Numbered from the stretch's first letter, positions 963 through 16,363 are shown. The stretch is 16,377 nt of DNA from an uncultured Chloroflexia bacterium (GCA_963766735.1 CAVYBU010000010.1:1-16377); one strand, 5' to 3'. A program made the numbers and translations. Notes: a model not told the origin generated them from the sequence alone.

Positions 963-1281
963 TCCCAGATAAGTCGCGGGTGAGCGGCGCGCGGCACCAT
1001 GCCGCGCATGCCTGCGACGACCCATGGCTCCGACCGCCACGGAGCCAGATCCAACCACCCAGGGCCAACCGCCCGGGTTCCCGGGCACCCGCCGCTGGGC
1101 GGCCGGGTTGACGCTGCCGATCCCGCATCCCGTATCGTTCGCGCCATCAGACGGCGCCGCCACCGGCAGCAGTTCCCGGCCGAACCCGTCGACGTCAGGG
1201 CACGAGGGACATGCGCTGGTCGCGGTCGGGCCTGGGATCGCAGGTTCAATGCTGTTCGCGGGACCGATCGGGCGGCTGGGG

Positions 1282-4200
1282 ATGAACCCGCTGCCGATCC
1301 AGCCGGCGAAGATCCACCCGCCGCTGCTCCGCCACGATGTCCTCTCCCGAGAGCGCCTCAACGGCTGGCTGGACAACGCGGCGAACGGGCGCGTCGCGCT
1401 GGTCATCGCCGAGGCCGGGTTCGGCAAGACCACGTTCCTTGCGGACTGGGCGCGCCACACCCGACGCGCAACGGCGTGGTACCGCCTGGAACCGGATGAC
1501 CGGGACTGGCTCGCCTTCATCAGGCATCTGGTCGCAAGCGGCCGGGAGATCGACCCCGGGTTCGCTCCGGATACCTACGACCTGCTGGCCGCACTGGGGC
1601 CAGGTGGTCCGTCCAGGGATGACCTGATCGTCAGCGTCGCCCAGGAGATGGCCGAGCTCGCATCGTCGCTGCCCAACGGCCTGAGCCTCCTGTTCGACGA
1701 CTACCACTCCGTCGACGGCAGCCCCGAGACCGAGCCCGTCATGAAGGCCCTGGTCGATCGAACGGGACCCGAATTCTCCCTGGTCATCGCGTCCCGGGCG
1801 GCGCCATCGCTCGCCCTGGGCAGGCTGCGCGCCCGCGGCGCCCTCTCGCGGATCGACGGCGACGGCCTCTGTTTCGACGTCCCCGAGACGGAGCGCCTCT
1901 TCCGGGATGCCTACCACCAGCCCCTGGACGCGGACGTGGTGGTGGACCTGATCGCCCGGACGGAAGGCTGGGCCGCGCTCCTGTCGCTGGTCCACACGAG
2001 TATTGACGAAGAGCGGAACTCGGACGCCCGGACCCTTGTCGGCCAACTGAGTGCATCTCGGGGTGATCTGTACGACTTCCTCGCTGAGGAGGTTATCGAA
2101 GGCCTTCCGAGGAGACTCGAGGAGTTCGTGATTCGAGTCTCGATCCTGACGGCAGTTGCCCCGGAGCGCGCGGCTCTGGTCGATGCCGGACCCCGCACCG
2201 AGATTACGAGTCTCATTGAACAGGCCGAGGGACTTGGTCTTCTCATGAGGCCAGACCGTGATCAGCCTCACCGGTTCCATCCACTCGTCCGGGACTTCCT
2301 TCGATCACGCCTTGAAGATCAGGTAGGACTCCCGGAGATTAGGGCCCGGCATCGGGCGGTTGGCGCGGCTCTCGTCGGAGTCGACTGGGGTGCGGCCGCG
2401 TGGCACTTCGCCCAAGCGGGCGACTCGGACGAAGCCGGGCGTGTGATCGATGACGCGATACCAGAAATCATGGCGTCGGGTCAGTTCGATCTCGCAGTGC
2501 CCTACCTAGATGGTTCCGCTGGCGCGACTGATAGGCCTGGGGCGCTCGTTCTCCGGAGTCGTCTCGAGTTCGCCAGGGGGAATCTGGAGAGGGCGAAGGC
2601 CCTGGCGGAGTCCGCCATCCGCGAAAGCCGTGGAGGCAGTCTCGCTGGATCGAGTCTGCTCAACCTTGCCTCACTGCTAGGAGTTGCTGGCTCCGAGCAA
2701 TCCGCGGTCGAGTTCGCGAGGCAGGCCATGACGTGTGAACTCACACCCTCGCAGCAATTGATCGCCAAGGCCACCATCGCACTCAGGGAGGCTGCGGATG
2801 AGGGCGACCTCGAGGCGATCGCAGAAGACTTGCGGATCCTCGCCGCTCAGCAATCACATGATGGCCATCGGCGACACAGCGGGATCTCCAACCTCAACCT
2901 CGCCGCCGCCCTCCTTTGGATTGGCGATGCTCAAGGTTCGCTTGCAGCAGCCAATCGTGCCGACAGCGACCTCGCCGGATCTGCTGCAACAAGCGCGGAG
3001 CGCGTCGCAGCTCTCGCTGCCCGCGCTCGGGCATTCGCCCATTTGGGTCGCGTCGACGAGGCCGAGCGGATCCTGAACGCTGGCGGTTCACTGCCCTCTG
3101 CGCTCAGCCGAGATGAGGCGAGCGTCGAGTTGGCCTCGATCCTCAGCGATTTCGGTTCCGCCGAGAGTGCCGCTAGTGCTCTTGCCCGCATCGATCCAGA
3201 CCACCTGATCCCCGGCTTTCGCGCAATCTGGGTGATGGCGCGCGGCCACATCGCCATTCGGACGGGGGAAACCGACCTAATCGCGCAGATGTGCAAAGAA
3301 CTCTCCGAGGAACCGTGCCGCGACTGCGCCGGGAAGCTCCGGACCGAGTTGCTACGGGCACGATCAGCGATCGCCCTCGGATCCCAGGAGGCTGTTTCGA
3401 ACATACGGGAGCTCGGGAGGATTGCGGATGCACAGCGATCACGAGTTGGACGGCTGTGGGCGGATCTGCTCCTGAGCGTTGCGTGTCCGGGGCCCATCCA
3501 CGCGGAAGTGCTTCGAGTCGGCCCAGACGAGGGCTACTGTCTCTCGATGCTTGCCGACGAGCTCAGTCGCAATCTGCACCGAATGTCCGATGAAGCTAGA
3601 GCCCGTGTCGAGGCCGAGGCTCGGGTGGTGCCCGAGCGATGGCGAGAGGCACTTCGTCAGGCAACAGCTGAAGGAGGTCCCTCAAGCTCCGAGGGCGCAC
3701 GCCTACTTTCCGTCGTGGGATCCTCAGACGACGCCGACTACCTCCGATCGATCGCTTCGACGTGCAAGGCATTTCGGCCGTACGCGGTATCCATCACGCG
3801 AAGGCTCGCGCCTACTGTCTATGTCGAGGATCTGGGCGCGGTGCGAATCCGGCTGGGCGACTCGCAGGTCGTCCGAGTGCGGAGGAGGAAGGTTCTCGGG
3901 CTAGCGTGCTTTCTATCGTCGCGGCAGGGCATGGCCTCGACTCGGGATGAAGCACTCGACGCGCTCTGGCCGGAACTCGGGCCAGACACGGCAGCCAACT
4001 CGCTTCACCAGACCATCTTCTACCTGCGTCGCGTCTTTGAGCCTGGGTACCGCGAGGGCCTGAGCCCTGGGTACGTGGTCTTCGACGGCGAGGTCGTCAG
4101 CCTCAGTTCAGACTTGGTAGACAGTGCGAGTCGGCGATGCTGGAAGACCTTGGGCCAGTACTCCGCCGACAGCGAGGAGGGCGCGACTCGCCTTCTGCGG

Positions 4201-4521
4201 TTGTATCGGGGCAAGTACGCCCTCGATTTCGCCTATGAGGACTGGGCCTCGTCCTATCGAGAGAACCTGCACGCGGCAGTTCTGGCACGCGTGGAGGCAG
4301 CGATGGAGGCGAGTGCGTCGGCAGGCAGCACGGATGCTGCGATCGGGCTTGCCCATTCCCTGATGGCGATTGATCCCGCCGCTGATGGGATCGAACTGGC
4401 GTTGGTGAGGATCTACAAGTCGAGCAGACGACATGCCGCGGCTGCCGAGCAGTACGCACACTACGCCTCAGTCGTGCGCGATGAACTTGGCGCAGAGCCC
4501 CCGAGCTTCGATGAGATCTGA
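1282..4521 (+). CDS. MalT-like STAND ATPase / helical-repeat (TPR-like) / C-terminal wHTH-BTAD transcriptional regulator
   Basis: PAKIHPP...RERL, Walker A AEAGFGKTT, Walker B LLFDDYH, TEGWAA, LYDFLAEEV and RFHPLVRDFL are MalT-like. The C-terminal RDEALDALWPE...NSLHQTIFYLRRVFEP...LYRGKYALDFAYEDW...ELGAEP is SARP/BTAD-like. The start may be further upstream (in-frame ATGs at 1024 and 1249). Confidence 0.88.
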   Translation: MNPLPIQPAKIHPPLLRHDVLSRERLNGWLDNAANGRVALVIAEAGFGKTTFLADWARHTRRATAWYRLEPDDRDWLAFIRHLVASGREIDPGFAPDTYDLLAALGPGGPSRDDLIVSVAQEMAELASSLPNGLSLLFDDYHSVDGSPETEPVMKALVDRTGPEFSLVIASRAAPSLALGRLRARGALSRIDGDGLCFDVPETERLFRDAYHQPLDADVVVDLIARTEGWAALLSLVHTSIDEERNSDARTLVGQLSASRGDLYDFLAEEVIEGLPRRLEEFVIRVSILTAVAPERAALVDAGPRTEITSLIEQAEGLGLLMRPDRDQPHRFHPLVRDFLRSRLEDQVGLPEIRARHRAVGAALVGVDWGAAAWHFAQAGDSDEAGRVIDDAIPEIMASGQFDLAVPYLDGSAGATDRPGALVLRSRLEFARGNLERAKALAESAIRESRGGSLAGSSLLNLASLLGVAGSEQSAVEFARQAMTCELTPSQQLIAKATIALREAADEGDLEAIAEDLRILAAQQSHDGHRRHSGISNLNLAAALLWIGDAQGSLAAANRADSDLAGSAATSAERVAALAARARAFAHLGRVDEAERILNAGGSLPSALSRDEASVELASILSDFGSAESAASALARIDPDHLIPGFRAIWVMARGHIAIRTGETDLIAQMCKELSEEPCRDCAGKLRTELLRARSAIALGSQEAVSNIRELGRIADAQRSRVGRLWADLLLSVACPGPIHAEVLRVGPDEGYCLSMLADELSRNLHRMSDEARARVEAEARVVPERWREALRQATAEGGPSSSEGARLLSVVGSSDDADYLRSIASTCKAFRPYAVSITRRLAPTVYVEDLGAVRIRLGDSQVVRVRRRKVLGLACFLSSRQGMASTRDEALDALWPELGPDTAANSLHQTIFYLRRVFEPGYREGLSPGYVVFDGEVVSLSSDLVDSASRRCWKTLGQYSADSEEGATRLLRLYRGKYALDFAYEDWASSYRENLHAAVLARVEAAMEASASAGSTDAAIGLAHSLMAIDPAADGIELALVRIYKSSRRHAAAAEQYAHYASVVRDELGAEPPSFDEI

Positions 4522-4589: not shown

Positions 4590-4619
4590 TTGACCGGTGT
4601 AGTCGGCCGTGCATATAGT
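4590..4619 (+). promoter_or_regulatory. sigma70/SigA-type promoter TTGACC-N18-TATAGT
   Basis: TTGACC at 4590-4595 and TATAGT at 4614-4619 each differ from consensus by one base. They lie directly upstream of the riboswitch. Confidence 0.7.
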
Positions 4620-4659
4620 CCGGCCCTGCACCAGTACTTTCGTACGGTGCACCAAGGAA

Positions 4660-4737
4660 ACGCTTGGACGCGCTGATGCCACCACCTGAAATGGGCACTT
4701 AGGGTGGAGGCGGAGCGAGTAGTGCAACCGACCGGCT
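4660..4737 (+). ncRNA. c-di-GMP-II riboswitch aptamer (Rfam RF01786-like)
   Basis: TTGGACGCGC-TGATG-CCACCACCTGAAA-TGGGCACTT-AGGGTGGAGGC-GGAG-CG-AGTAGTGCAACCGACC carries the class II hallmarks: kink-turn TGA.../GGAG, TGGGCACTT loop, pseudoknot GCACT (4695-4699)/AGTGC (4721-4725) and 3' GCAACCGACC. It lies upstream of a c-di-GMP phosphodiesterase gene. Confidence 0.9.
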
Positions 4738-4762
4738 TTCGAGTCAGGTCGGTTTTCGTGTT
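4726..4762 (+). terminator. Intrinsic terminator-like expression platform overlapping the aptamer 3' end
   Basis: AACCGACC-GGCT-TTCG-AGTC-A-GGTCGGTT stem with a UUCG loop, ending in a U-rich tract (TTTTCGTGTT). Confidence 0.75.
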
Positions 4763-4799: not shown

Positions 4800-4832
4800 G
4801 TGGCACCGAGCAAGGGCCTCAAGGGCTGGTAG
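4800..4832 (+). CDS. Micro-ORF, 10 aa MAPSKGLKGW
   Basis: Near-perfect SD AAGGAGGT (4786-4793), 6 nt spacer, GTG start and TAG stop. The C-terminus LKGW mirrors LKGF of the next ORF. Confidence 0.6.
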   Translation: MAPSKGLKGW

Positions 4833-4858: not shown

Positions 4859-4948
4859 ATGAAGGATCGCCTCATGCGACTCCTGGCCACTCTCGGCGCA
4901 GTCGCCGCATTGGCGCTCGCCGGAGGCGCGTCGCTAAAGGGCTTCTAG
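4859..4948 (+). CDS. Small peptide precursor, 29 aa MKDRLMRLLATLGAVAALALAGGASLKGF (putative signalling peptide)
   Basis: SD GGGAGG (4845-4850) 8 nt before the ATG. It has a signal-peptide-like basic N-region and hydrophobic core, a small-residue GGA site and a short tail SLKGF. Confidence 0.8.
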   Translation: MKDRLMRLLATLGAVAALALAGGASLKGF

Positions 4949-5037: not shown

Positions 5038-6454
5038 ATGCCGACAAAGCTGAAGCTCTACATTATTGGAGTCGTGGCAACGAGCGCTATCGCGCTCGTT
5101 GCTACGACTCGTTTGATTCCAGTCGAGGACGGGATTGCCCTGACTGTCGCGCCGTTCGGAATCTCTCTCGACTCAGGCAGGCCTCGCATTCTGGTGTGCG
5201 GTGACCCTGATCGCGTCCGCGCTTCCCGTCCGAATGCCTCGCGGAACAATGGTAGGCGTTTCGATCGCGCCGCTGATTGCGGCCACGGTCCTGGGCGGTC
5301 CGACCGCCGGAGCCTGGGTCGCGCTCATCGGGACGACGGAGGTGCGTGAGCTGCGCGGCCGTGTTCCGTGGTACGGCTCGCTGGCCAACCACGCCGGGCT
5401 GATGATCCCCGCGATCGTGGCTGGCATGGTCATGCGCGTACTCGGCGTCCCGGGGAGCGAGGAGTACACGATCACCTTCATCGCGGCTCTGATCGGTGCG
5501 GCAGCCTTCTTCCTGGTCAACGCGACGCTCACCGCTGCTGCGGTGGCTCTCCAAACTGAGCAGCCATTTCGCAGCGTGTTGCTGGGCGACGCCAAGGTCT
5601 TCGCCACGAACCTCCTTGGGCTTGCCCCGCTCGCTTGGCTCATGGCCCAGATGTACGAGGTGGCTTGGTGGGCCAGCTCTGCTGTTCGCCGTTCCGCTCT
5701 ACACGACGCGGCTCGCCTACCACAACTTCATCGAGATGCGCGAGATGTTCACCCAGACCATCGGTGCGCTGGCAGAGGCCGTGGACAAACGCGACCCGTA
5801 CACCGAGCAAGCATTCGCGTCGGGTCAAGGAGATCGCGCGGCGACATCGGTCGGGTCATGCGCCTGGGGGAGAGTGACCTCGAGGCCCTGGAGTGGGGCG
5901 GCCTGCTCCACGACGTCGGCAAGATCGGCGTGCGGGACGCGGTGCTGCTCAAGCAGGACAAGCTCAACAAGGAGGAGCGGGCGCAGATGAACGCGCACCC
6001 GGTCCTCGGTGCGGAGATCATCGCGCCGGTGACGCGACTGTCCCGGGAGCTGCCGATCATCCGCCACCACCACGAGTGGTACAACGGCTCGGGGTACCCG
6101 GACCGGCTCATCGGGGACGAGATCCCGCTGCTGGCACGCATCCTTCACGTGGCGGACGCCTTCGAGGCGATGACCGCCGCCCGGCCGTACCGGATGACGC
6201 CGCTGACCTCGGAGCAGGCACTGGGCGAGCTGCGGAAGTTCGCCGGCGTCCAGTTCGATCCCAAGGTGGTGGACGCCTTCGTGAAGACGGACTGGGCCCA
6301 GGACGTGGCCGACCCGGGCCGGACGCTGCAGGCGCGACCGATCCCGCTGATCTCGCAGCACGCGAACCGGACTGCCAACGCCGTCTGCCACGCCCGACGC
6401 AACCTGAGCACTTCCGCCTCGCCGGAGCAGCCTCGGCGGCGGTCGCACTCGTAG
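5038..6454 (+). CDS. Membrane-anchored HD-GYP c-di-GMP phosphodiesterase with multi-TM N-terminal sensor region (frameshifted in this sequence)
   Basis: Joined across shifts at about 5180, 5675, 5810 and 5840: MPTKLKLYIIGVV...multiple TM helices...EMFTQTIGALAEAVDKRDPYT-HSRRV...LLHDVGKIG...HHHEWYNGSGYP...ADAFEAMTAARPYR...QFDPKVVDAF. The exact C-terminal end is uncertain. Confidence 0.9.
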
Positions 6455-6517: not shown

Positions 6518-8680
6518 ATGCTGATCGGCGGTATCACGCTCGGGCTGGTGCTCGGCCTGCTCCTGGGCGGGCGCCTGGAGAACCTGGCCAACATCCGTCT
6601 GCGCTTCCTGCCGCTGCTGTTCGTGGCGGTGATCCTCCGGTTTGCGACGGAAGCGCTGCTCGGGATGGGCGTCGAGGTCGTGGACGCGCTGCGTGTGCCG
6701 CTGCTCGGGGGCGCCTACGGGCTCCTGCTCTTCACTCTCTGGCACAACCGCTCGTACCCGGGCCTGGCGCTGGCGTTCGTCGGGATCGCGTCCAACACCC
6801 TGGTGATCGTGTGGAACGGAGGCTGGATGCCGGTGTGGCAACCCGCCTACGACGCGTCCGGGCTGGCGGGACCGCTCTACTCGCAGCTCCACTTCCCGAT
6901 CAGTGGCACCGGCGCCGAGTTCCTGCTCCACCTGGGCCCGCTGGCGGACGTCATCCCGTTCCCTATCCCGCCGCTGCAGAACGTCGCCTCGGTCGGTGAC
7001 CTGTTCCTGACGGCCGGCCTGGCGTTCTTCCTGTTCGCCACCCTGATGAGAACGCCGGCCGAGACGCAGACGGCGATCGACGAGGCGAAGACGGGTCGCT
7101 ACCTGGGCCTCGTCGGGCACGGCCCGCCTGCCGAGGCGTGGCGAGGCCGCGGGGGACGCGGCGGGCCTGGGCGTCCGCCCGGGAACCGGCCTGACGCCCG
7201 GCCTGCAGGAGGCCGCGGCCCTCGAACGCCCGCTGATGATGGGCGCCGGCGGCATCGGGCATGGCATCGCCGTCCGGGTCGCTCCATTGCGCCAGAGGGA
7301 GCCACCGCCGGAGCCGGAGTCGCGGCCACCACCGCCACCGCCTTCCCCGGTGGCATCGCTGTCCCCCGCCCGCGTCCTCGCCGGCGGGCGCTCGGCCCGC
7401 GCGTCCGCCGCCACCCGTACGTGCGCCTGGCGCTCAACGGCTCGTTCTCGGCGCTGTGGGTGGGCCAGGTGATCAGCCTGTTCGGGGATCGCGTCAACCA
7501 GATCGCCCTGGGCGCCTTCGTCTACGAGCTGACCGACTCGCCGTTCGCCGTGGCGCTGACCTTCTTCATGGGGACGATCCCCAACCTGGTCTTCTCGCCG
7601 ATCGCCGGGGCCTACGTGGACCGCTGGGACAAGAAGCAGGTGCTGGTGGTCTCGGACATCCTCCGGGCGGCGCTGACCCTGCTCGTGCCGGTGGCCGTCC
7701 TGATCAACGTCTGGCTGGCGTACCCGCTGGTCTTCCTGATCACGACGGTCTCGATCTTCTTCCGGCCGGCGCGAGTTGCGATCCTGCCGCGCCTGGTTCC
7801 CAAGCGGGACCTGCTCTCCGCCAACTCCGCGATGTGGGTGGGCGAGACGCTGGCCGACGTCATCAACTACCCGATCGCCGGCCTGTTCGTGGTCTTCCTG
7901 GCTGGATCGCTGCCGATCGCGTTCTGGTTCGATGCCGCCACCTACCTGGTCTCGGCCGCCCTGCTGGCCTCGATCGCGATGCCGCCGCTGGCCCGCCGAA
8001 TCCGCGGCACGGACGCCGCCGATGGTCCGGAGGGAGCGAACGAGGGCGAGGGCGGGACAGACTCCCAGACCTCGATCCTCACCGACATGAAGGTGGGATG
8101 GGCATTCCTCCGCCACGAGACCGTCCTGCTGGCGAACACGATCCAGGGGACGGCCGGCCAGTTCGCGGTCGGCATCGTCACGGTGTCCGCCATCATCCTG
8201 GCGAGGCAGATCACGGGTTCGGATGGCAACGAGTACCGCGCGACCTACGCGTTCATGGAGACGGCCATCGGCCTCGGCAACCTGATGGGCGGCTTCGCCC
8301 TGGGCATGGTGGCCACGCGTGTCCGCAAGGGGCGGCTGGTGATCGCCGCCTACACGGTCTTCGGCGTGCTGATCTTCCTGGTCGGCCTGACAGACTCGAT
8401 CCCGCTGATCCTGGGGCTGCTGTTCGGGGTCGGCGTGGCGAACATGGCGTTCGTCATCCCCAGCCAGACGATGTTCCAGGAGCGCACGCCGCCGGAGCTG
8501 ATGGGGCGCGTGGTCAGCCTCCGGTTTGCCCTCGTGTTCGGCGGTATGTCCGTGGCGATGGCCGTGGGCGGCCTCCTGGTGGGGGTCTTCGGGCCGAGCC
8601 CGGTGATCGCGGCGGCCGGGCTGCTGTCGATCGTCGCCGGCCTCGCGGGGCTGGGCGTCAAGGCGCTGCGGGAGGCGTGA
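6518..8680 (+). CDS. DUF5317 domain fused to an MFS transporter (MFS_3/DHA3-like)
   Basis: The N-terminal ~180 aa carry DUF5317 motifs (GGRLENL..IRLR, SNTLVIVWNGGWMPV, LADVIP...SVGD). The C-terminal part is MFS-like (LWVGQVISLFGD, AGAYVDRWDKKQVLVVSDILR, FQERTPPELMGRV). The linker at ~7120-7290 probably has compensating indels. Confidence 0.85.
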   Translation: MLIGGITLGLVLGLLLGGRLENLANIRLRFLPLLFVAVILRFATEALLGMGVEVVDALRVPLLGGAYGLLLFTLWHNRSYPGLALAFVGIASNTLVIVWNGGWMPVWQPAYDASGLAGPLYSQLHFPISGTGAEFLLHLGPLADVIPFPIPPLQNVASVGDLFLTAGLAFFLFATLMRTPAETQTAIDEAKTGRYLGLVGHGPPAEAWRGRGGRGGPGRPPGNRPDARPAGGRGPRTPADDGRRRHRAWHRRPGRSIAPEGATAGAGVAATTATAFPGGIAVPRPRPRRRALGPRVRRHPYVRLALNGSFSALWVGQVISLFGDRVNQIALGAFVYELTDSPFAVALTFFMGTIPNLVFSPIAGAYVDRWDKKQVLVVSDILRAALTLLVPVAVLINVWLAYPLVFLITTVSIFFRPARVAILPRLVPKRDLLSANSAMWVGETLADVINYPIAGLFVVFLAGSLPIAFWFDAATYLVSAALLASIAMPPLARRIRGTDAADGPEGANEGEGGTDSQTSILTDMKVGWAFLRHETVLLANTIQGTAGQFAVGIVTVSAIILARQITGSDGNEYRATYAFMETAIGLGNLMGGFALGMVATRVRKGRLVIAAYTVFGVLIFLVGLTDSIPLILGLLFGVGVANMAFVIPSQTMFQERTPPELMGRVVSLRFALVFGGMSVAMAVGGLLVGVFGPSPVIAAAGLLSIVAGLAGLGVKALREA

Positions 8681-8779: not shown

Positions 8780-9443
8780 ATGACCGACAACGAGCGCGAC
8801 CCGGAGGCCGTTGGCCCCGAGGGCGCGACGGACGAGACCGAGGCCGCGGACGACGCCGCCTCCGACACCGACGAGACGACTGCCGACGAGACGACTGCCG
8901 AGCGGGGCGGACGACGAGAGCGCGGACGACGCGGGCGAAAGCGCCGACGAGAGCGCCGACGGGGGTACGGACGACAACGTCGACGAGTGGGCCGCTGCCG
9001 TATCCACCGGCCCTGCCGCACCTGCCGCTGCTGCCGCCGGCACGACGGGGAAGCCGGCCCGCGGCCGGAAGGCCAAGGCGGCTGCACCTGCCGCGGCACC
9101 GACGATCTCCGAGCAGGCCGTCCACATCGGCGACCGCGCGTCCGCCTGGTTCGTGATCGTGACGATCGGCGTGTTCGTGGCGATCTTTGCCAGCGCGATG
9201 CTGTTCGGCAAGGGCGGCTTCGTGACTGACGTGCTGGCAACACCGACGCCGGTCGTGACGCCTGCTCCCGTTGTCACGCCGGCCCCGACCGCGGCACCGA
9301 CCGCGGCGCCTTCGACAGAAGCTACCGCGGCACCCACCGCAGCTCCCACGGCGGCGCCGAGCCCCAGCGAGTCGGTTGCTCCTTCTGCCAGCCCGGAACC
9401 GTCCCCCAGCGACGCCGCCTCGCCGAGTCCGTCGGCGAGCTAG
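8780..9443 (+). CDS. Hypothetical single-pass membrane protein with acidic N-terminus and Pro/Thr/Ala/Ser-rich C-terminal tail (frameshift ~8905)
   Basis: GAGGAG SD upstream and possible -10 TACACT at 8715-8720. [12 protein letters not shown]... joins the frame of the 8811..9443 ORF, giving TM segment [20 protein letters not shown] and then PTAA repeats. Confidence 0.7.
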
Positions 9444-9453
9444 CCCTCCGGCG

Positions 9454-10135
9454 ATGGACGAGCCCCGGGCGCGCACGAGCGAGGCCCGGGCGCGCACGAG
9501 CGAGGCCCGGGCGCGGATGGTCGCGGACCAGCTCCTCGGCCGCGACATCCGGGACGAGCGGGTCCTCAAGGCCATGGACACCGTCCCGCGGGAGGCGTTC
9601 GTGCCGGCGAAGGAACGCGACTATGCGTACCTCGATGGCCCGCTGGCGATCGGTGCCGGCCAGACGATCAGCCAGCCGTACATGGTGGCTCGTATGGCGG
9701 AGCTGCTCCACGTGGCGCGCGGCGACCGTGTCCTGGAGGTCGGTACCGGCTCCGGGTACGCCGCGGCGGTGCTGGCGGAGATCGGGCTGCCGCGTGACGA
9801 CGATCGAGCGGGAGCCGGGACTGGCGGCGGAGGCGCGCGCACGCCTGGCGGACCTGGGCTACGCGGACCGCGTGGACGTGCGCACGGGCGACGGGAGCCT
9901 GGGCCTGCCCGAGGAGGCACCGTGGGACGGCATCGTGGTGGCCGCGGCCGCCCCGGAGATCCCGGACGCCCTGCGCGAGCAGCTGGGCGACGGGCGGCGG
10001 CTGGTGATCCCGGTCGGATCGCGCCGGCAGCAGCAGCTCATGGTGGTGGAGCGGCACGGCGCCGAGTGGCAGGAGCACTCGGACGGGGCCTGCGTCTTCG
10101 TGCCGCTGATCGGCGGCGGGGGGTGGCAGCGGTGA
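9454..10135 (+). CDS. pcm: Protein-L-isoaspartate O-methyltransferase (frameshift ~9787)
   Basis: [48 protein letters not shown], then in the second frame [21 protein letters not shown]...GRRLVIPVG...CVFVPL. Confidence 0.93.
9464..9515 (+). repeat. 21-nt tandem repeat (~2.5 copies) at the pcm 5' end
   Basis: CCCGGGCGCGCACGAGCGAGG x2 plus CCCGGGCGCG, encoding RARTSEA repeats. Confidence 0.85.
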
Positions 10136-10201: not shown

Positions 10202-10219
10202 TATACTCGGCCGGCCATG
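10202..10219 (+). promoter_or_regulatory. Probable leaderless or near-leaderless promoter (-10 TATACT)
   Basis: TATACT at 10202-10207 lies 9 nt upstream of ATG 10217, with no SD sequence between them. Confidence 0.55.
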
Positions 10220-11294
10220 ACCCATGTGTTCGTTGCCCCCCACCCGGACGACGTTGCGCTCTCGTGCGGCGGGCTGATCGCCAGCCTGCGCGAGCTCGGC
10301 CAGAACGTCACGATCCTGACGCTCTACTCCGGCTCCGGGCAGCGCTGACCAGCTCACGCCGTACCAGCGCGAGGCACTGGGCTTCGGGTCCAAGGCGGTC
10401 TGGCCGGTCAGCGAGGCGTTCAACCGCGCCCACCTGCAGGCCGACTTCCCCGAGGACGCCGCTGCCGCCCCCTGGCAGGCGACGAAGGAGGGCCTGGACG
10501 CCACGCAGGGCGAGGCGGACGCCGCCGCCAAGCGGTTCTGGCAGCGCTCCTCCTGGTACCGCCGGGCGAGGATCCACAACGAGTCCCTGGCGGGCCAGCC
10601 GGTCATCGACGACCTGGCCACGCAGGGCGCGGTCATGACGTCCGAGCGGACGGACGCGGCCGCCGCGGGCGACACCATGGCCGAGCGGCGTCTGGAGGAC
10701 GAGCGATACGCCGCCTTCGCCGAGGTCTCGGTCGTCTGGCTGGACCTCCCCGACGCGGTCTTCCGCGGCTACGAGGGCGACGACCAGCTCCTGGGCACGC
10801 CGCGTGCGGACGATCCGGCGCCGGTGGACCTGCTCCGCCGCGAGATCGCGCGCCTGGAGCCGTCCCGCATCTACCTGCCGCTGGGCATCGGCGGCCACGT
10901 TGACCACCAGCTGGCCCGCGACGCCGGGATCGCGCTCATGCACGACGCCCAGGCCTGGGTGATGCCCGGCCCGGACAACGCGGACATGACCGTCTTCTAC
11001 GAGGACTTCCCCTACGCGTGGTGGGAGGACTTCGGCCGCCTGGAAGACCTGCCTCCGGACGCGCTGGCCGGGCTGCCGGAGGGCGTCTCGCTGACCGCGG
11101 ACTTCGGGGACGTGGGCGACGTGCTGGAGCGCAAGATCCAGGGGATCCTGCTGTACGAGAGCCAGATCGAGCGGCTGTTCGACGACAAGGCCGCTGCCGC
11201 GGCCGCCGTGCGTGCGTACGCGGCGCGGGTGGCGGACATCGGCTCCGTCGCGAGCGGCGCCGCCGAGCGGTACTGGGTCACGACGCCGGCCTGA
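10217..11294 (+). CDS. PIG-L/LmbE family N-acetylglucosaminyl deacetylase (frameshift ~10340)
   Basis: MTHVFVAPHPDDVALSCGG, RRLED, LDLPDAVFRGY, PLGIGGHVDH, FYEDFPY, K...YESQ and ERYW motifs. Confidence 0.9.
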
Positions 11295-12172
11295 CGGTTG
11301 TGATTGGGCGCATCGCCGCGCGGACCGGGTGGTCACGACCCGGCGGTGCTGACAGTCTCCTAAGGATCACGGCCGTCGGCGCGATGAACAGGACGAACGA
11401 AGCCCAGTAGAAGGCGGGAATGGCGACGACGGCGGCCGCCGCTCGTGACCAGGGACGCCACAGGGCGAGCAGCGCAAGCGCGATGGCCGCCCGGACCAGG
11501 TACGGCACGGGGATCTGCGGTCCGATCCCGACCTTGCCATAGGCCTCAACGAGGATGCTCAGCCAGGCGGGCCACAGCGCGAGCCATGGCAGCGTGATCA
11601 AGACGCCGATGACGATCACCGGCACGATCGGACGCCAGTCTCTCGGATCGACGGCGAAGAATTGGTGAGATCTTGGCAAACGCCGTGGCAGCGGCGAGGC
11701 GCGGCTCCCCCTGCACGGCCATGACGATGCCGGCCGCGATCACCAGGTTGAAGTGACCTGACGTCAGCTCCCATGGCATGACCGGGAACGCAAGCGCGAG
11801 ACAGAAGCCGAACCAGCTTCCACCCAGGTAACGCAGAGCAGCGATCTCCGCCACCAAGACGAACCCCTGCTGCACCCCGGTGGGCAGCCAGGATGTGGCT
11901 CCGTAGAGAACCGCGATCGGCGGCGAGTAGAAGAAGGCGCCGTCGAACGCGGACGTGTAGACAGGTGTCCCGTTTCGGAGAGCGTCTCCGGCGGGATCGA
12001 AGATGTTGGTGACGTCCAAACCCGGCCACGGGAGCTGGCCCTGCCGGATGAGCATCCCCAGCTGGACCAGGAACCACACCACACATACGACTGCCAGAGC
12101 AAACCGCAGGAGCGGCCGGGCATCCAGGGCGGCGCCGAGGCGGGCAGGCAAGCTATGCGCGTGAGTGGTCAC
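11278..12172 (-). CDS. GT87/DUF2029-like integral membrane glycosyltransferase (frameshift ~11660)
   Basis: GGAGG SD before GTG 12172. A TM segment is followed by D...F..AG..LRNG.PVY...FFYSPP, then GHFNLVI and AKISP, continuing into the 11278..11679 frame with further TM helices. Confidence 0.7.
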
Positions 12173-12374
12173 AAGCCCGCCTCCAACTCGACCGGTAGGG
12201 GAGCCAGATCACGCCGCCGGAGTCCTCGTCGACAACTGGCACAATTGGCCAGGAGGAGGTCGGAGCCGGCGGAGCGCACCTACAGTCGATCCTCCCGCAT
12301 GGCTGCGCCCGACGATAGCAGGGCAACGAGCGGCACACCCGGCAAGGCCGTAGCATCACCGTCATCACCTTCAT
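12153..12374 (-). CDS. Possible small Cys-rich protein (73 aa)
   Basis: CRVCRSLPCYRRAQPCGRIDCRC cluster. Its ATG overlaps the upstream stop (ATGA) and its 3' end overlaps the start of the GT87-like gene. No recognised family. Confidence 0.3.
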   Translation of the reverse strand: MKVMTVMLRPCRVCRSLPCYRRAQPCGRIDCRCAPPAPTSSWPIVPVVDEDSGGVIWLPYRSSWRRACDHSRA

Positions 12375-13896
12375 CGAAGCACGCTCGAGATCGCCGCATC
12401 ATCCCGGGCGATGCGTTCAACTGCCTGGCCGCCGGCGAGCGGCTCAACGCCCGCCACCAACTGTGTGCGCTCGTGCCCGGTGATCGGCCGGTCGACCTCG
12501 ACCGGGCCTCGCACCAGGATCGCGCCGTCGGTGTCCTCGTAGACCACCGTCCAGCCGGTCAGGTCCAGGTGCGTGCCGGCCGGGAGCACGAGGAGGTCGA
12601 CCTGCCACCGGGCGAGGGCCTCGTCCGCGGCCGGGTCCGCCCGCGGCGATCGTCGCCCGGTCCGCCCAGACCTCCGCCGGGAACAGCTCGAACCGGGAGT
12701 CCAGGAAGTAGCAGGGCATCTGGCACGGCCCACTCGAGGAACGAGGTCCAGGTCTGGGCCGCAAGCACGCGGGTGCCAGCGGGGCCAGCTCGCGGAGGTC
12801 CGCCGCGATCCCGGACGGGGCGTAGGACAGGATCCCGGCGCGGCCGGTGATCGGGTCCGCTGGGCGCCACCACGGCAGGGCGGCCACCACCAGCCCAAGA
12901 GGAGGCCGCCACGACCACCGGAAGGCGGGACGCGCGTCGCGGGGTCGAGCTGTCCGGGAGGCGCTGGACACAGCGCGTCCGGCAGGCCGCCCAGCACGAA
13001 GACAGCGCCGAACGGCCACCAGGCGAGGCCGCGGACCGCCCAGACGCCGATCGCGAACAGCGCCGCCAGGAACAGCCAGTCCGGCCATCGCAGCGCCGCG
13101 CGTCCACGGACGGCCAGGACGAACGCCGCCGCGCCCGAGAGGTAGAACAGCAGGCCCGGAACGGTGAACGGGGTCGTGCGCTGCCACTCGCTGACCTGGC
13201 CGGAGATGACGGGGTTGGCGCCGATGCCCGGCGGCGTACGCCCAGACGCCCACCCCGAACGGGTTCACGAGCGTGGCGGCCGTGCCGGCCACGAGCACGG
13301 CGAAGGAGGCGCGCGCCGGTCGACCGCGGACGAGGTCGTCCAGCCAGGCGTAGCCCAGGAGGATCGGCGCGAGGACGAAGGAGCCGTGGATGTTGGCCCA
13401 CGCGATGACAAGGAGGGGCGCCAGCCAGAACGCCCGCGGGTTGCGGTGTCGGCGCGCGACCAGCAGCAGCAGGGCGGCGAAGATCGCGATCGCGAACAGC
13501 TGCGGCCGCAGTGCCAGCGCGGGCGCAGCCAGGGCGAAGGCCACGAGCCCGAGGATCGACGCCGTCCTGGCCCGGGCACCGCGCGCAATCGCCGTCGCCA
13601 CCAGCAGCCCGATCGAGAGCGAGACCAGCGCGGCCCGCAGGACCACCAGCAGCTCCCAGCCGCCGGCCCGGAACCCGAGCGCCAGGAGCACCTGCGCCAG
13701 CCACTGCTGGTCCGTCCACGGCGTCCCGGCCACCGTGAACGTGTAGGCGTCCACCGCCGGGATGACGCCGGTCCGCAGGATCTCGTCGCCGGCGCGCACC
13801 TGGTACGCGAGGTCCACGGCTGGGCAGCGGGACGAGCAGCGAGACCAGCGCAGGCAGCGCGACCGCCAGGAACAGCCAGAGACGTTCGAGGGTCAT
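12371..13896 (-). CDS. Uncharacterised polytopic membrane protein, probable GT-C fold glycosyltransferase (several frameshifts)
   Basis: Joined frames: MTLERLWLFLAV...DLAYQVRAG..I.....IPAVDAYTFTVAG.PW.DQQWL...LRPQLF...WANIHGSF...VNPFG...VSEWQ...FLDSRFELFP...W.VVYED. The exact stop is uncertain. Confidence 0.7.
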
Positions 13897-14247
13897 CGAG
13901 GCATGTTGAACGGGCGACCGGTCTGGAGCGTCGCATCGCGCTCATGCTACGGGCCGCTTGGCACGGGCGCCACGCGGGTACCGCCCAGTACGAGTACACA
14001 TCGACGTCGTGGCCCAAGGCGCCAACCCGAGCGGACGAAGCGAGCGTCGCCGCTCCGAGCAGCACGTTGCCGTCGCGCGCGAGCCGCCGGGGTACCTGCA
14101 ACCCGAGGAACGGCGCGCGGGCCCGATGCTACGTGCCGGATCCGGGCAGGTACAGTCCGAAGGTACGGTCGAACAGCATTGGGGCCGGGACTACCCTGCC
14201 CCAACCACTGGCGTGGACCGACCCGGGACGCCAAGGGAGGAGGACGC

Positions 14248-16363
14248 GTGTCCGACGACAGCGAGCCGCACAGCGACGGCCCATTCCTCCTGCCTCCGGT
14301 GAAGCGACTTGCACGACCCGCGACACGGCTCCTCCTCGTCAGCTCCACGGTCCTGTTCGCGGAGTTGCTGGTCATCCGATGGATCCCGGCGAACGTCATC
14401 TACGTCGGCTTCTTCCGGAACTTCCTCCTCATGGCGAGCTTCCTGGGGATCGGCCTCGGGATCCTGTGGGGCCGCAATCCACGGCCGCATCCAGATCTCC
14501 CCGTTCGGTCCGATGCTTCTCGCCATCGCGTTGCTCGTGACCACGCAACGGGTGAGCATTCAACTCCAGTCCCCGGGGGAGATCTTCTTCGGGCTCAGCG
14601 AGAGCACCGCCGCAGACGTCAACTTCATCGTGCTGCCGGTCATCGTGGCGCTGGTCGCGCTCCTGATGGCTTCTCTCGCGGTGCCATTGGGCGGCCTCCT
14701 GTCATCGATGCCCCCGTTGCGGGCCTACAGCTGGGACATCCTCGGCTCGATGGCCGGAATTGCCGCCTTCACACTCCTGTCTGGACTTGGGACGCCGCCC
14801 ATCGTGTGGTTCGCGGTGCTGGGCGCTCTTCTGGTGCTCGGCGGTCTGGCAGTCGGAATCCGACGCTCCTCAGTGGTCACGGCGGTCACCATCTCCGCGA
14901 CGCTGGCGGTCGTCCTGCTCGCGACGAAACCCGACCAGACATGGTCGCCGTACTACCGCATCGACCGCTACGCCGCGCAGGGCATCGAGGCACTGGACGT
15001 GAACGGGATCCCCCACCAGGCGATGTGGCCGGTGGACATCGCGCTGGAGGACCCGATCTACAACCAGGTCTACCGCTGGTTCCCGGAGCGGACTTTCGAC
15101 AACGTCCTCATCATCGGCGCCGGAAGCGGCACGGACGTGGCGGTCGCCCTCGAGAAGGGGGCCAAGCACGTGGACGCGGTCGAGATCGATCCGGCGATCC
15201 AGCGGATCGGCGTCGAGCGCCACCCGGACCGCCCATACGATGACCCGCGCGTCACCCGAATCGTGGACGACGGCCGCGCCTTCCTGCGCAAGACCGACGA
15301 CGCAGTACGACCTCGTGATCTTCGCCCTGCCCGATTCGCTGACGCTCGTGAGCACGTCGGCGAACCTCCGGCTCGAGTCCTTCCTGTTCACGCGTAGAAG
15401 CGTTCGAGGACGTGCGCCGCGCACGTCGGGCCGGACGGGTTGTTCGTTCTCTACAACTACTACCGGGAGGACTGGCTGCCCGCCAAGATCGGCGGCATGC
15501 TCCAGGAAGCCTTCGACGCCAAGCCCATCGTGCGCCTTCACGGACAGGCCGCCGCGACGCTGGCCGTCGGACCGGCGATCGAGGCCGTGGGCGGCCGCCC
15601 GCCGGGGGACAGCGTGGACGAGATCGACCTCGCTTCCGCCCCGCAACCTGCGACCGATGACTGGCCGTTCCTCTACCTGATCGAGCCGTACATCGCCCCG
15701 TACTACTTGGGCGCGCTCGCTCCTGATCCTCGTGTTCGCAGGCCTCATGGTCTGGCGCGCGGCGCGCGGTAGCGGAACGTCCCTCCGGCGGTTCAGCCCG
15801 CACTTCTTCCTGCTGGGCGTCGCGTTCCTCCTGCTGGAGACCCGGAGCCTCGTGACCTTCAGCCTGCTGTTCGGCAGCACGTGGCTCGTCAACTCACTCG
15901 TGTTCTTCGCCGTGCTCGCGAGCGTGCTCGCGCGCCATCGCCATCAACGCCCGCTTCCGATTCGGAACCCGGTACCACTCTATGCGGCGCTGCTCGTCTC
16001 GATCCTCGTGGCGTACGTCCTGCCGCCTGCGTCGCTCCTGGTCGAGCCGGTGTGGCTACGGTACGGCTGGCAGCCGTCGTGGCGTTCGCCCCGGTGTTCT
16101 TCGCCAACCTCGTGTTCAGCCACTCGTTCCGGGATACGTGGACCGCGGACATGGCGTTCGCGTCCAACCTGCTGGGCGCGATGGTCGGCGGCGCGGTGGA
16201 GTACCTGGCGCTGCTCACGGGCTACCAGGGCCTGCTCGTGATCGTCGCGGCGCTGTACGTGACCGCATGGCTGGCGTCGTCGAAGGTGCGCATCCTCGCC
16301 GACAAGGACCTGGTCAACGACGCGGAAGCGCCACCGTCATCTCAGGCCGCGGTGGTCAGCTGA
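14248..16363 (+). CDS. Membrane-fused spermidine-synthase-like SAM-fold protein (multiple frameshifts)
   Basis: GGAGGAGG SD and GTG start. TM region ELLVIRW...FLGIGLG, then WSPYYRI, VNGIPHQ, VLIIGAGSGTDV, VDAVEIDP, DDGRAFL, YDLVIFALPDS, ESFLFT, PATDDWPFLY, and a C-terminal TM region HFFLLGVAFLLLET...SNLLGAMVGG..EY. Confidence 0.85.

Follow-up and report, generated by a model that had tools for sequence, protein, structure and literature searches.

The window analysed here is a stretch of 16,377 nucleotides from an uncultured Chloroflexia bacterium (GCA_963766735.1 CAVYBU010000010.1:1-16377), which makes up the entire contig C10 in its assembly, and contig C6 carries the region a second time. 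One of its genes encodes the membrane domain DUF5317 (PF17248) together with a transporter domain of the major facilitator superfamily (MFS), in a cassette with the order regulator, riboswitch, mini-gene, peptide gene, MASE9-HD-GYP gene and DUF5317-MFS gene. On balance, we lean towards the view that DUF5317 is an aspartic peptidase related to LspA (lipoprotein signal peptidase II), which cuts the peptide of the cassette within a feedback loop based on cyclic di-GMP (c-di-GMP). The linkage of DUF5317 in a peptide/c-di-GMP cassette is solid; its peptidase function is likely, though unproven.

According to this proposal, DUF5317 and lipoprotein signal peptidase II would have the catalytic core in common and differ in the N-terminal half. 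DUF5317 would bind the membrane-anchored small peptide encoded nearby and cut it near a conserved Gly-Ala on the outer face of the membrane, releasing a tail of 5–7 residues; a cut before, within or after Gly-Ala is a guess. Cleavage would alter how the peptide acts on MASE9, the membrane domain of the adjacent c-di-GMP enzyme, and, in Limnocylindria, control of the peptide gene by c-di-GMP riboswitches would close the feedback loop. The MFS protein would serve as an accessory transporter, recruited more than once and probably moving a peptide species, be it the precursor tail, a signal-less mini-peptide, or a product or remnant coming back in, either outwards or inwards.

A sequence-only reading of the window had taken DUF5317 for the peptidase that matures a 29-amino-acid precursor, coupled to transport. 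As a whole, this interpretation is partly supported: the fold, topology and peptide binding of DUF5317 are predicted, and we infer cleavage, maturation rather than destruction of the peptide, the cut site, the receptor role and the transporter substrate.

DUF5317 and the core of lipoprotein signal peptidase II

The DUF5317 match of the window protein comprises residues 25-172 (E 2.5e-22, 79.9 bits, above the gathering score of 25), and the AlphaFold model of the domain predicts five helices with a small beta sheet between helices 4 and 5 (predicted local distance difference test, pLDDT, 96.7). The polar motifs that had been singled out as possibly catalytic (N..V...NGG.MPV, D.I and S.GD) are present as N93..NGG.MPV (100-106), D144-V-I and S158-V-G-D161. 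Both aspartates, D144 and D161, are invariant in 164/164 aligned sequences from three phyla, along with G89, N93, M104, S158 and G160, and the second one is kept in 38 of 40 further Actinomycetota loci, as read by eye.

Loops 1 and 3 have Lys/Arg densities of 0.19 and 0.15, and loops 2 and 4 densities of 0.05 and 0.03. In the forward fusion, the C-terminus of DUF5317 is joined to the start of the MFS domain, while in a reverse fusion (locus L178) the MFS end is joined just before helix 2. Given this charge bias and the two fusion arrangements, the beta sheet and both aspartates are predicted to lie on the outer face of the membrane, as do the catalytic aspartates of LspA according to the accessible text of PMC6952399.

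Since the elements of DUF5317 follow one another as in the second half of LspA, helix-helix-strand(Asp)-strand-(Asp)helix, this part was folded separately, with the C-terminal 115 residues taken from a stand-alone homologue (pLDDT 95.5; 32% identical to the core of the window protein). In a structure search of 48,161 chains, this core placed 5DIR and 6RYP first (Z 6.0; root-mean-square deviation 2.5 and 2.7; 82 aligned residues; identity 23% and 16%), both of them lipoprotein signal peptidases. Foldseek ranked LspA chains 1–4 with the same core (best E 1.1, prob 0.69, TMq 0.56). The fragment superposes only on LspA helices 2-4, and the scores alone are unconvincing; what carries the case for LspA is its rank, the higher identity within the aligned part and the coincidence of the aspartates with the dyad positions. 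Among the 14 conserved residues of LspA listed in PMC6952399, plausible counterparts, assigned partly by eye, exist in DUF5317 for G102, N106, D118, N133 (Ser), A135 (Gly) and D136.

Searches with the whole 179-residue domain gave a different picture. Foldseek returned nothing at E<=0.001, and VIA-align listed only generic helical bundles (best Z 8.8); that LspA is missing from the top 50 rows excludes nothing. A sequence-profile search of the PDB with DUF5317 yielded 0 hits at E<=10, and the ESM Atlas minus DUF5317 clusters no usable match. At E<=1, Peptidase_A8 (PF01252) matches 5 of 114 DUF5317 members (best E 3.9e-4, 21.1 bits, under the gathering score of 25). The suspected likeness to signal peptidase II holds for the invariant aspartate pair, its outer-face position and the top rank of LspA for the C-terminal core; it does not extend to the A8 gathering score or to the full set of conserved residues. 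DUF5317 falls outside family A8 by these tests, yet it may work like an A8 peptidase. A separate true LspA is kept in 32 of 37 genomes.

The peptide gene and its c-di-GMP setting

The surroundings of DUF5317 were surveyed in 60 Limnocylindria loci, 50 with a long and 10 with a short frame, which was the basis of their choice, plus 20 stand-alone DUF5317 loci; in 80 loci from a Euzebya query, mostly Actinomycetota with two Bacillota, a set biased by the query; and in 40 of the 87 DUF5317 matches from 151 evenly drawn Actinomycetota genomes, of which 59 contain DUF5317, the 40 being picked stepwise down the ranking. Domain profiles for the locus tallies were built locally from the sampled loci. 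The unpublished genomes G087 and G106 are counted in the Limnocylindria DUF5317, frame-length and riboswitch tallies (G087 being also L027 in the alignment for the LspA comparison), G128 enters as L050 and L138 in the aspartate and LspA-comparison alignments, the core-identity comparison, the peptide and Euzebya-query tallies, the riboswitch search of Actinomycetota/Bacillota loci and one tandem-peptide example, and G160, G207, G247 and G279 appear only in the 151-genome tally; no conclusion rests on unpublished genomes alone.

The 29-amino-acid precursor frame named by the sequence-only reading exists in the window and belongs to a family of peptides of 25–35 residues that start with basic residues and continue as a hydrophobic helix up to Gly-Ala, followed by a tail of 4–6 residues in which Lys/Arg precedes an aromatic end; the search rule demanded Gly-Ala/Gly and W/F, not the lysine. 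With a profile made from 54 Actinomycetota and Bacillota peptides, the window peptide and its twin came out on top of 58,619 stop-ended frames of their own genome (22.0 bits, compared to 13.7 for the next frame). A held-out profile found a peptide at 10 bits or more in 45/59 MFS-linked loci (the one in L188 is not a peptide by eye), 11/20 stand-alone loci and 19 of the 40 even-draw loci, and in 0/30 and 0/24 control loci, which were about half as long; the search rule identified one in 52 of the 80 Euzebya-query loci. Six peptides that were scanned had no NCBIfam match at E<=1 and two unrelated Pfam matches (E 0.12 and 0.23). Gene order is shuffled in several ways, yet peptide, sensor and DUF5317 remain together, and the tie between DUF5317 and a small peptide is evident as locus linkage across Limnocylindria and Actinomycetota.

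For the natural 32-residue peptide of locus L147 and its own DUF5317, complex prediction gave a score of 0.38 (best control 0.02), with run agreement in at least 98% of contacts and a partner pLDDT of at least 66. This mark is attained by 116/157 solved complexes and 2/215 mismatches; scores at or above it but not exceeding 0.60 comprise only 18/157 solved complexes and both mismatches. The model support for binding is weak.

The other general partner is a c-di-GMP enzyme. An HD-GYP gene lies directly upstream of DUF5317 in 57/60 Limnocylindria loci, a MASE9-like domain occurs in 68/80 Euzebya-query loci and in 23 of the 40 even-draw loci, and the trio of DUF5317, peptide gene and MASE9-type c-di-GMP enzyme travels together in three phyla. 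The copy of the enzyme on C6 has intact HD, HHExxxGxGYP and RxY[K/R] motifs (HD_5, E 1e-37), and its MASE9 (PF20972) score is 23.4 bits at a gathering cut-off of 24.3 (E 6.4e-5).

This arrangement would also fit a peptide that is never cut. The peptide gene mostly lies immediately before the MASE9 gene and on its strand, also in loci with a divergent DUF5317 gene; peptide tails vary little, unlike those of many pheromones; in the accessible text of 10.1101/2021.11.05.467447, MASE9 is proposed to bind a ligand within the membrane; and that of PMC13724677 describes small membrane proteins under the control of c-di-GMP riboswitches in Clostridioides difficile, the unrelated CD1980.2 family of 58 residues. 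The peptide could stay intact and act, as a single helix in the membrane, together with the MASE9 sensor, and DUF5317 could be a non-catalytic binder, chaperone or sequestering protein on an LspA-like core, given that the binding prediction does not separate a substrate from a partner. We nevertheless deem this unlikely: aspartates kept in every aligned sequence at the LspA dyad positions suggest chemistry, the small-residue Gly-Ala motif sits exactly at the helix end, and peptide and DUF5317 also occur where the DNA examined holds no MASE9 gene (6/80 Euzebya-query loci, some on short contigs, plus L211, L212 and L221).

Expression of the cassette is probably linked to c-di-GMP as well. A terminator-like hairpin overlaps the 3' strand of the class II aptamer, which suggests that high c-di-GMP would turn the operon on. 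A RF01786 match is located 1.2–2.0 kb upstream in 52 of the 69 DUF5317 matches listed for families f1 and f4, many of the misses lying near contig ends. A further cassette, paralogous to this one, has a class I riboswitch immediately ahead of its peptide gene in 12 of the 15 loci chosen. The assembly of the window (G000) contains ten RF01786 matches at E<=0.001, most of them under the gathering score, and several relatives contain 6–12, a possible expansion of variant class II-like aptamers; among the five small genomes of family f2 (1.0–1.4 Mb), no DUF5317 and no riboswitch turned up in those searched.

Between riboswitch and peptide gene, all 34 f1/f4 loci examined possess a mini-gene of 6–10 codons with a ribosome-binding site. 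Its K/R-x-W/F end resembles the tail of the cognate peptide (73 tail identities compared to 58.9 after shuffling, p 0.0002, with kin not independent), and only 6 of 1,906 such mini-frames in the window's own genome end in this way, two of them being the mini-gene itself. The last codons barely vary and often pair as a hairpin with downstream bases. The mini-gene may have a role in translational coupling; this signal-less gene of the window lineage may also encode the tail alone, as a substrate of the MFS protein or a competitor. No mini-gene was seen in 15 f3/f5 loci retaining the MFS; it therefore cannot be the sole reason for the transporter.

The structural evidence for a peptidase applies equally to an enzyme that ends the signal, by destroying an active membrane peptide, or that clips the sensor or another substrate, maturation being left to a housekeeping signal peptidase. 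Such a role accords with the fusion of DUF5317 to a membrane GGDEF-EAL enzyme in Euzebya and with orphan DUF5317 paralogues lacking a peptide. However, the tail past Gly-Ala keeps both its length and its K-W/F end, and the mini-gene codes separately for just such a tail; both suggest a function of the tail once free. We rate this alternative role of the peptidase as quite improbable.

Several observations weigh against DUF5317 as a peptidase of the cassette peptide. Regarding structure, a Z-score of 6.0 is modest, with the next unrelated chain at 5.3 counted as tied by the tool, and the core fragment was trimmed to match LspA after the hypothesis had been formed. The hhalign profile comparison of DUF5317 with 29 LspA sequences was not significant (P about 0.06), the window domain has no Peptidase_A8 match, and evident counterparts of LspA D21, K25, N52, G54, D109 and R110 (S. 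aureus numbers, from the accessible text of PMC6952399) are missing. Two of the 40 further Actinomycetota proteins, both divergent, lack the second aspartate. Regarding gene context, neither peptide nor sensor is found with 7/20 stand-alone Limnocylindria copies (L208, L214, L218-L220, L222, L224) or nearby in about 16 of the 40 even-draw loci, and no riboswitch was detected in 16 Actinomycetota/Bacillota loci or in 39 f3 genomes. The Gly-Gly-Ala of the peptide could presumably also suit the housekeeping signal peptidase I.

Some loci deviate in their composition. Tandem peptide genes occur in L044, L050, L206, L210, L216, L256, L257, L273 and L278. In L206 and L216, one MASE9-GAF-GGDEF-EAL gene has a DUF5317 gene on either side, followed by two different peptide genes, the second type of which (Glu-Ala-Gly) is also found with DUF5317 alone in L211, L212 and L221, hinting at cognate pairs. 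The orphan DUF5317 genes of L214, L218, L220, L222 and L113, where no peptide was found, lie directly behind a DinB-family gene and near HPPD-like and proline-metabolism genes. The copies that have lost the second aspartate (L291, L292) have neither peptide nor sensor nearby.

The MFS fusion and the window sequence

As the sequence-only reading had stated, DUF5317 shares one ORF with a full MFS domain: MFS_1 (E 2e-19, 70.2 bits) and MFS_3 (E 7e-17, 61.5 bits), both above the Pfam gathering scores, span residues 308-710, and both domain types are found together in 120/120 homologues listed (396–1260 residues), which include the window protein and its own-assembly twin and, where named, belong to Candidatus Limnocylindrales. 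The reading frame itself contains errors. Compared to C6, contig C10 has many single extra bases, which disrupt the upstream HD-GYP gene, and three of them, at 7111, 7257 and 7282, fall into the linker, where they cancel out, so that the ORF remains open. The codon-position GC in the ORF frame is 0.93/0.84/0.67 within 7111-7282, compared to 0.70/0.44/0.93 in the DUF5317 domain, and homologues conserve the linker across the very span that the window reads off-frame (7111 to about 7282). The extra base at 7111 is missing from contigs of three of four public runs (X1, X4, X15), and those at 7257 and 7282 are missing from contigs of one run, X4, on a 644-base piece bridging 6959-7605 from the DUF5317 end to the MFS start; one of the runs could derive from the source sample. 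The linker segment of the window is translated in the wrong frame, and the true protein is fused, like the intact 719-residue C6 copy. An indel artefact as the origin of the fusion is rejected by the homologues with both domains, the C6 copy and the independent contigs. In the RNA run X15, contigs cover the DUF5317-MFS gene, although contigs cannot demonstrate transcription.

The fusion extends across the class Limnocylindria, with two neighbouring genes in its place in some lineages, and is met again in Actinomycetota. A DUF5317 match is present in 101 of 121 Limnocylindria genomes, in 75 of these within a frame of 540–800 residues; frame length is only a proxy for fusion and was discarded as proof, given that three frames above 530 residues among 40 Actinomycetota loci were not fusions. 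Among the 60 Limnocylindria loci, DUF5317 and MFS form one frame in 49 and neighbouring genes in 11. The description of DUF5317 as usually stand-alone hence applies outside Limnocylindria and fails within the class. A second kind of fusion is known from a cultured organism: on plasmid NZ_CP031166.1 of Euzebya pacifica (L033:3727-8394), a peptide gene and a membrane GGDEF-EAL gene are followed by DUF5317 fused to a membrane GGDEF-EAL protein.

In a tree of the cassette MFS proteins, from which 40 of 120 rows were omitted as near-duplicates or for thinning, the Limnocylindria clade mixes fused and split members (26 rows; Shimodaira-Hasegawa-like approximate likelihood ratio test, SH-aLRT, 96), and Actinomycetota form a fused clade (11 rows, SH-aLRT 87) and an adjacent clade (6 rows, 100). 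A single origin of the 43 core rows is neither shown nor rejected (approximately unbiased test, AU, p 0.43). The reverse-order fusion of L178, a single case from a metagenome-assembled genome, combines a different MFS with a different DUF5317 clade; an AU test, chosen after viewing the tree, speaks against its MFS joining the Limnocylindria clade (p 0.00075).

It is conceivable, although somewhat unlikely, that the fusion tells nothing about DUF5317 and that a generic DHA3-type efflux or lipid-flipping gene with an unrelated small molecule as its cargo was fused, which would fit any reading of DUF5317. MFS occurs in only one of the 40 even-draw loci, and there not adjacent; no other transporter family recurs downstream in 34 loci without MFS; fused and split forms alternate; and no NCBIfam cut-off is reached (bits/cut-off: TIGR00900 200/319.6, MefA 72.7/675, EntS 61.5/324, Tap 28.1/625, LplT 33.5/297). 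On the other hand, the link is kept in all 60 chosen Limnocylindria loci, it is seen in 26 of the 80 query-biased loci of other groups (14 fused, 12 adjacent), and it arises in the reverse order in L178. This repeated linkage suggests functional coupling. An obligatory role of MFS is rejected, as most DUF5317 loci outside Limnocylindria lack it, and so is its confinement to Limnocylindria, by the MFS-linked loci of the Euzebya-query set. MFS is an accessory, and the general partners are peptide gene and sensor.

The coupled export of the mature peptide suggested by the sequence-only reading is doubtful: an outward-facing cut, as predicted, would free the product outside without any exporter. 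Movement of the precursor tail, export of the signal-less mini-peptide, and re-uptake of the product for the upstream TPR-type regulator are possible roles instead. The informative partners of DUF5317, in the sense of a Rosetta stone, are the peptide gene, the MASE9-type enzyme and the riboswitches, and the MFS fusion mainly fixes the topology.

Table 1. Features of the DUF5317-MFS cassette in the window
Feature	Position	Strand	Remarks
MalT-like AAA-TPR-BTAD regulator	1024..4521	+	conserved upstream neighbour in families f1/f4; system membership uncertain
Sigma-70-like promoter	4590..4619	+	10/12 consensus positions; pattern match only
c-di-GMP-II riboswitch aptamer	4657..4740	+	RF01786, 59.5 bits, gathering 53.5, model 1-84
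Terminator-like hairpin	4726..4762	+	overlaps aptamer 3' strand; candidate ON switch
10-codon mini-gene, unannotated	4800..4832	+	GTG start, strong ribosome-binding site, K-G-W/F tail, no hydrophobic part
29-residue precursor-like peptide	4859..4948	+	basic start followed by hydrophobic core and Gly-Ala; tail of five residues; cysteine-free
MASE9-like membrane domain and HD-GYP phosphodiesterase	5038..6454	+	broken in window by extra bases; intact 454 residues in C6 copy
Fused ORF, DUF5317 and MFS	6518-8680	+	720 codons, single frame
DUF5317 domain, residues 1-177	6518..7048	+	candidate LspA-related aspartic peptidase; Pfam, AlphaFold, homologue-core fold searches
Asp144, first candidate catalytic aspartate	6947..6949	+	position of LspA D124/D118; aligned to LspA VVDF
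Asp161, second candidate catalytic aspartate	6998..7000	+	position of LspA D143/D136
Cytoplasmic linker	7049..7417	+	7111-7282 off-frame in window contig, three extra bases
MFS domain, DHA3/MFS_3 type	7418..8680	+	Pfam MFS_1, MFS_3

The BTAD regulator at the upstream end of the cassette (Table 1) is found in 33/60 Limnocylindria loci and in none of the f3/f5 loci. Its window and C6 (L034:2967-6491) copies are identical over the first ~250 residues (from MNPLP) and then diverge to 18–51% identity per 100 columns with lower GC, which we read as a swapped allele of the sensor/output region between two strains or haplotypes. Downstream of the fused gene, extra bases break further genes (8780-9443, 9455-10135, 10219-11294, 11278-16363), among them a Pro/Thr/Ala-rich membrane protein and a protein-L-isoaspartate methyltransferase (PCMT; PF01135) and, named by eye, a PIG-L-like deacetylase, glycosyltransferase-like membrane proteins and a spermidine-synthase-like protein. 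Beyond 11298, the window has no match on C6. An additional minus-strand gene of 423 codons lies on C6 (C6:195131-196402, G000) between the PCMT and PIG-L-like genes; it is absent from the window and by eye resembles an AAA-family ATPase.

Comparison with known systems

In a literature search that was thin on subscription journals, no description of DUF5317/PF17248 or of the cassette was found, nor anything on MASE9 with a peptide, on Limnocylindria with c-di-GMP, or on an LspA-like peptidase or LspA homolog in a peptide pheromone or diguanylate context. Tentatively, and with rather less confidence than for the peptidase itself, the cassettes might represent an undescribed class of peptide signalling in several Gram-positive-type phyla, in which DUF5317 cuts a cysteine-less precursor, the tail acts as a MASE9 ligand tuning c-di-GMP turnover, and two unrelated riboswitch classes feed back on the peptide gene. 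If true, a widespread domain of unknown function would gain a function, MASE9 a concrete candidate ligand, and cell-to-cell peptide signalling a direct link to c-di-GMP. To our knowledge, no non-lipoprotein relative of signal peptidase II is established, and DUF5317 would be the first. Among the loci examined, Solirubrobacter and Euzebya are cultured carriers.

With LspA (PF01252; 5DIR, 6RYO, 6RYP, 9EMZ), DUF5317 is predicted to share a three-helix core and outer-face strands, which superpose (LspA 67-158), and two aspartates at the outer surface; the aspartates are spaced by 17 residues (18–19 in LspA), and a Gly-x3-Asn is present in the helix before. In contrast, the N-terminal half consists of two helices rather than a helix and the first strands, the extra strands derive from an insert after helix 4, and several of the 14 conserved residues of LspA have no evident counterpart. 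The putative substrate resembles LspA substrates in its basic start, hydrophobic helix and small residues at the helix end; unlike them, it lacks a lipobox cysteine (Cys in the last 10 residues of 0/101 linked peptides).

The enzyme upstream probably has the architecture of the MASE9-HD-GYP phosphodiesterases TM1467 of T. maritima and HdgA of S. venezuelae, with intact HD-GYP motifs, whereas in the accessible text of their accounts (Galperin and Chou, 10.1101/2021.11.05.467447; PMC6205966) no MASE9 ligand, peptide gene or DUF5317 partner is given. The C. difficile CD1980.2 family likewise comprises small membrane protein genes directly under c-di-GMP riboswitches; these differ, according to the accessible text of PMC13724677, in being stated to lack homologues outside C. 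difficile and in their class I OFF switches, and no peptidase or sensor partner is described there. With the DHA3/MFS_3 transporters (MefA, EntS, Tap, LplT), the window protein shares MFS_1 and MFS_3 scores above cut-off and TIGR00900 as its best NCBIfam model; unlike these named transporters, the cassette MFS proteins form clades of their own.

A further parallel is offered by the peptide signalling systems of Gram-positive bacteria, such as Agr (AgrD/AgrB/AgrC), RRNPP systems with Phr, PapR or SHP peptides, and the enterococcal pheromones, in which the genes for a short precursor that has a hydrophobic leader, for a membrane peptidase dedicated to it, for a transporter and for a receptor lie together and the product has 5–7 residues. 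The cassette peptide, unlike AgrD and other known precursors, matches no Pfam or NCBIfam family, and its receptor would be a one-component c-di-GMP enzyme instead of a histidine kinase or a cytoplasmic TPR protein. Further, the peptidase would be LspA-like, and expression would be linked to riboswitches.

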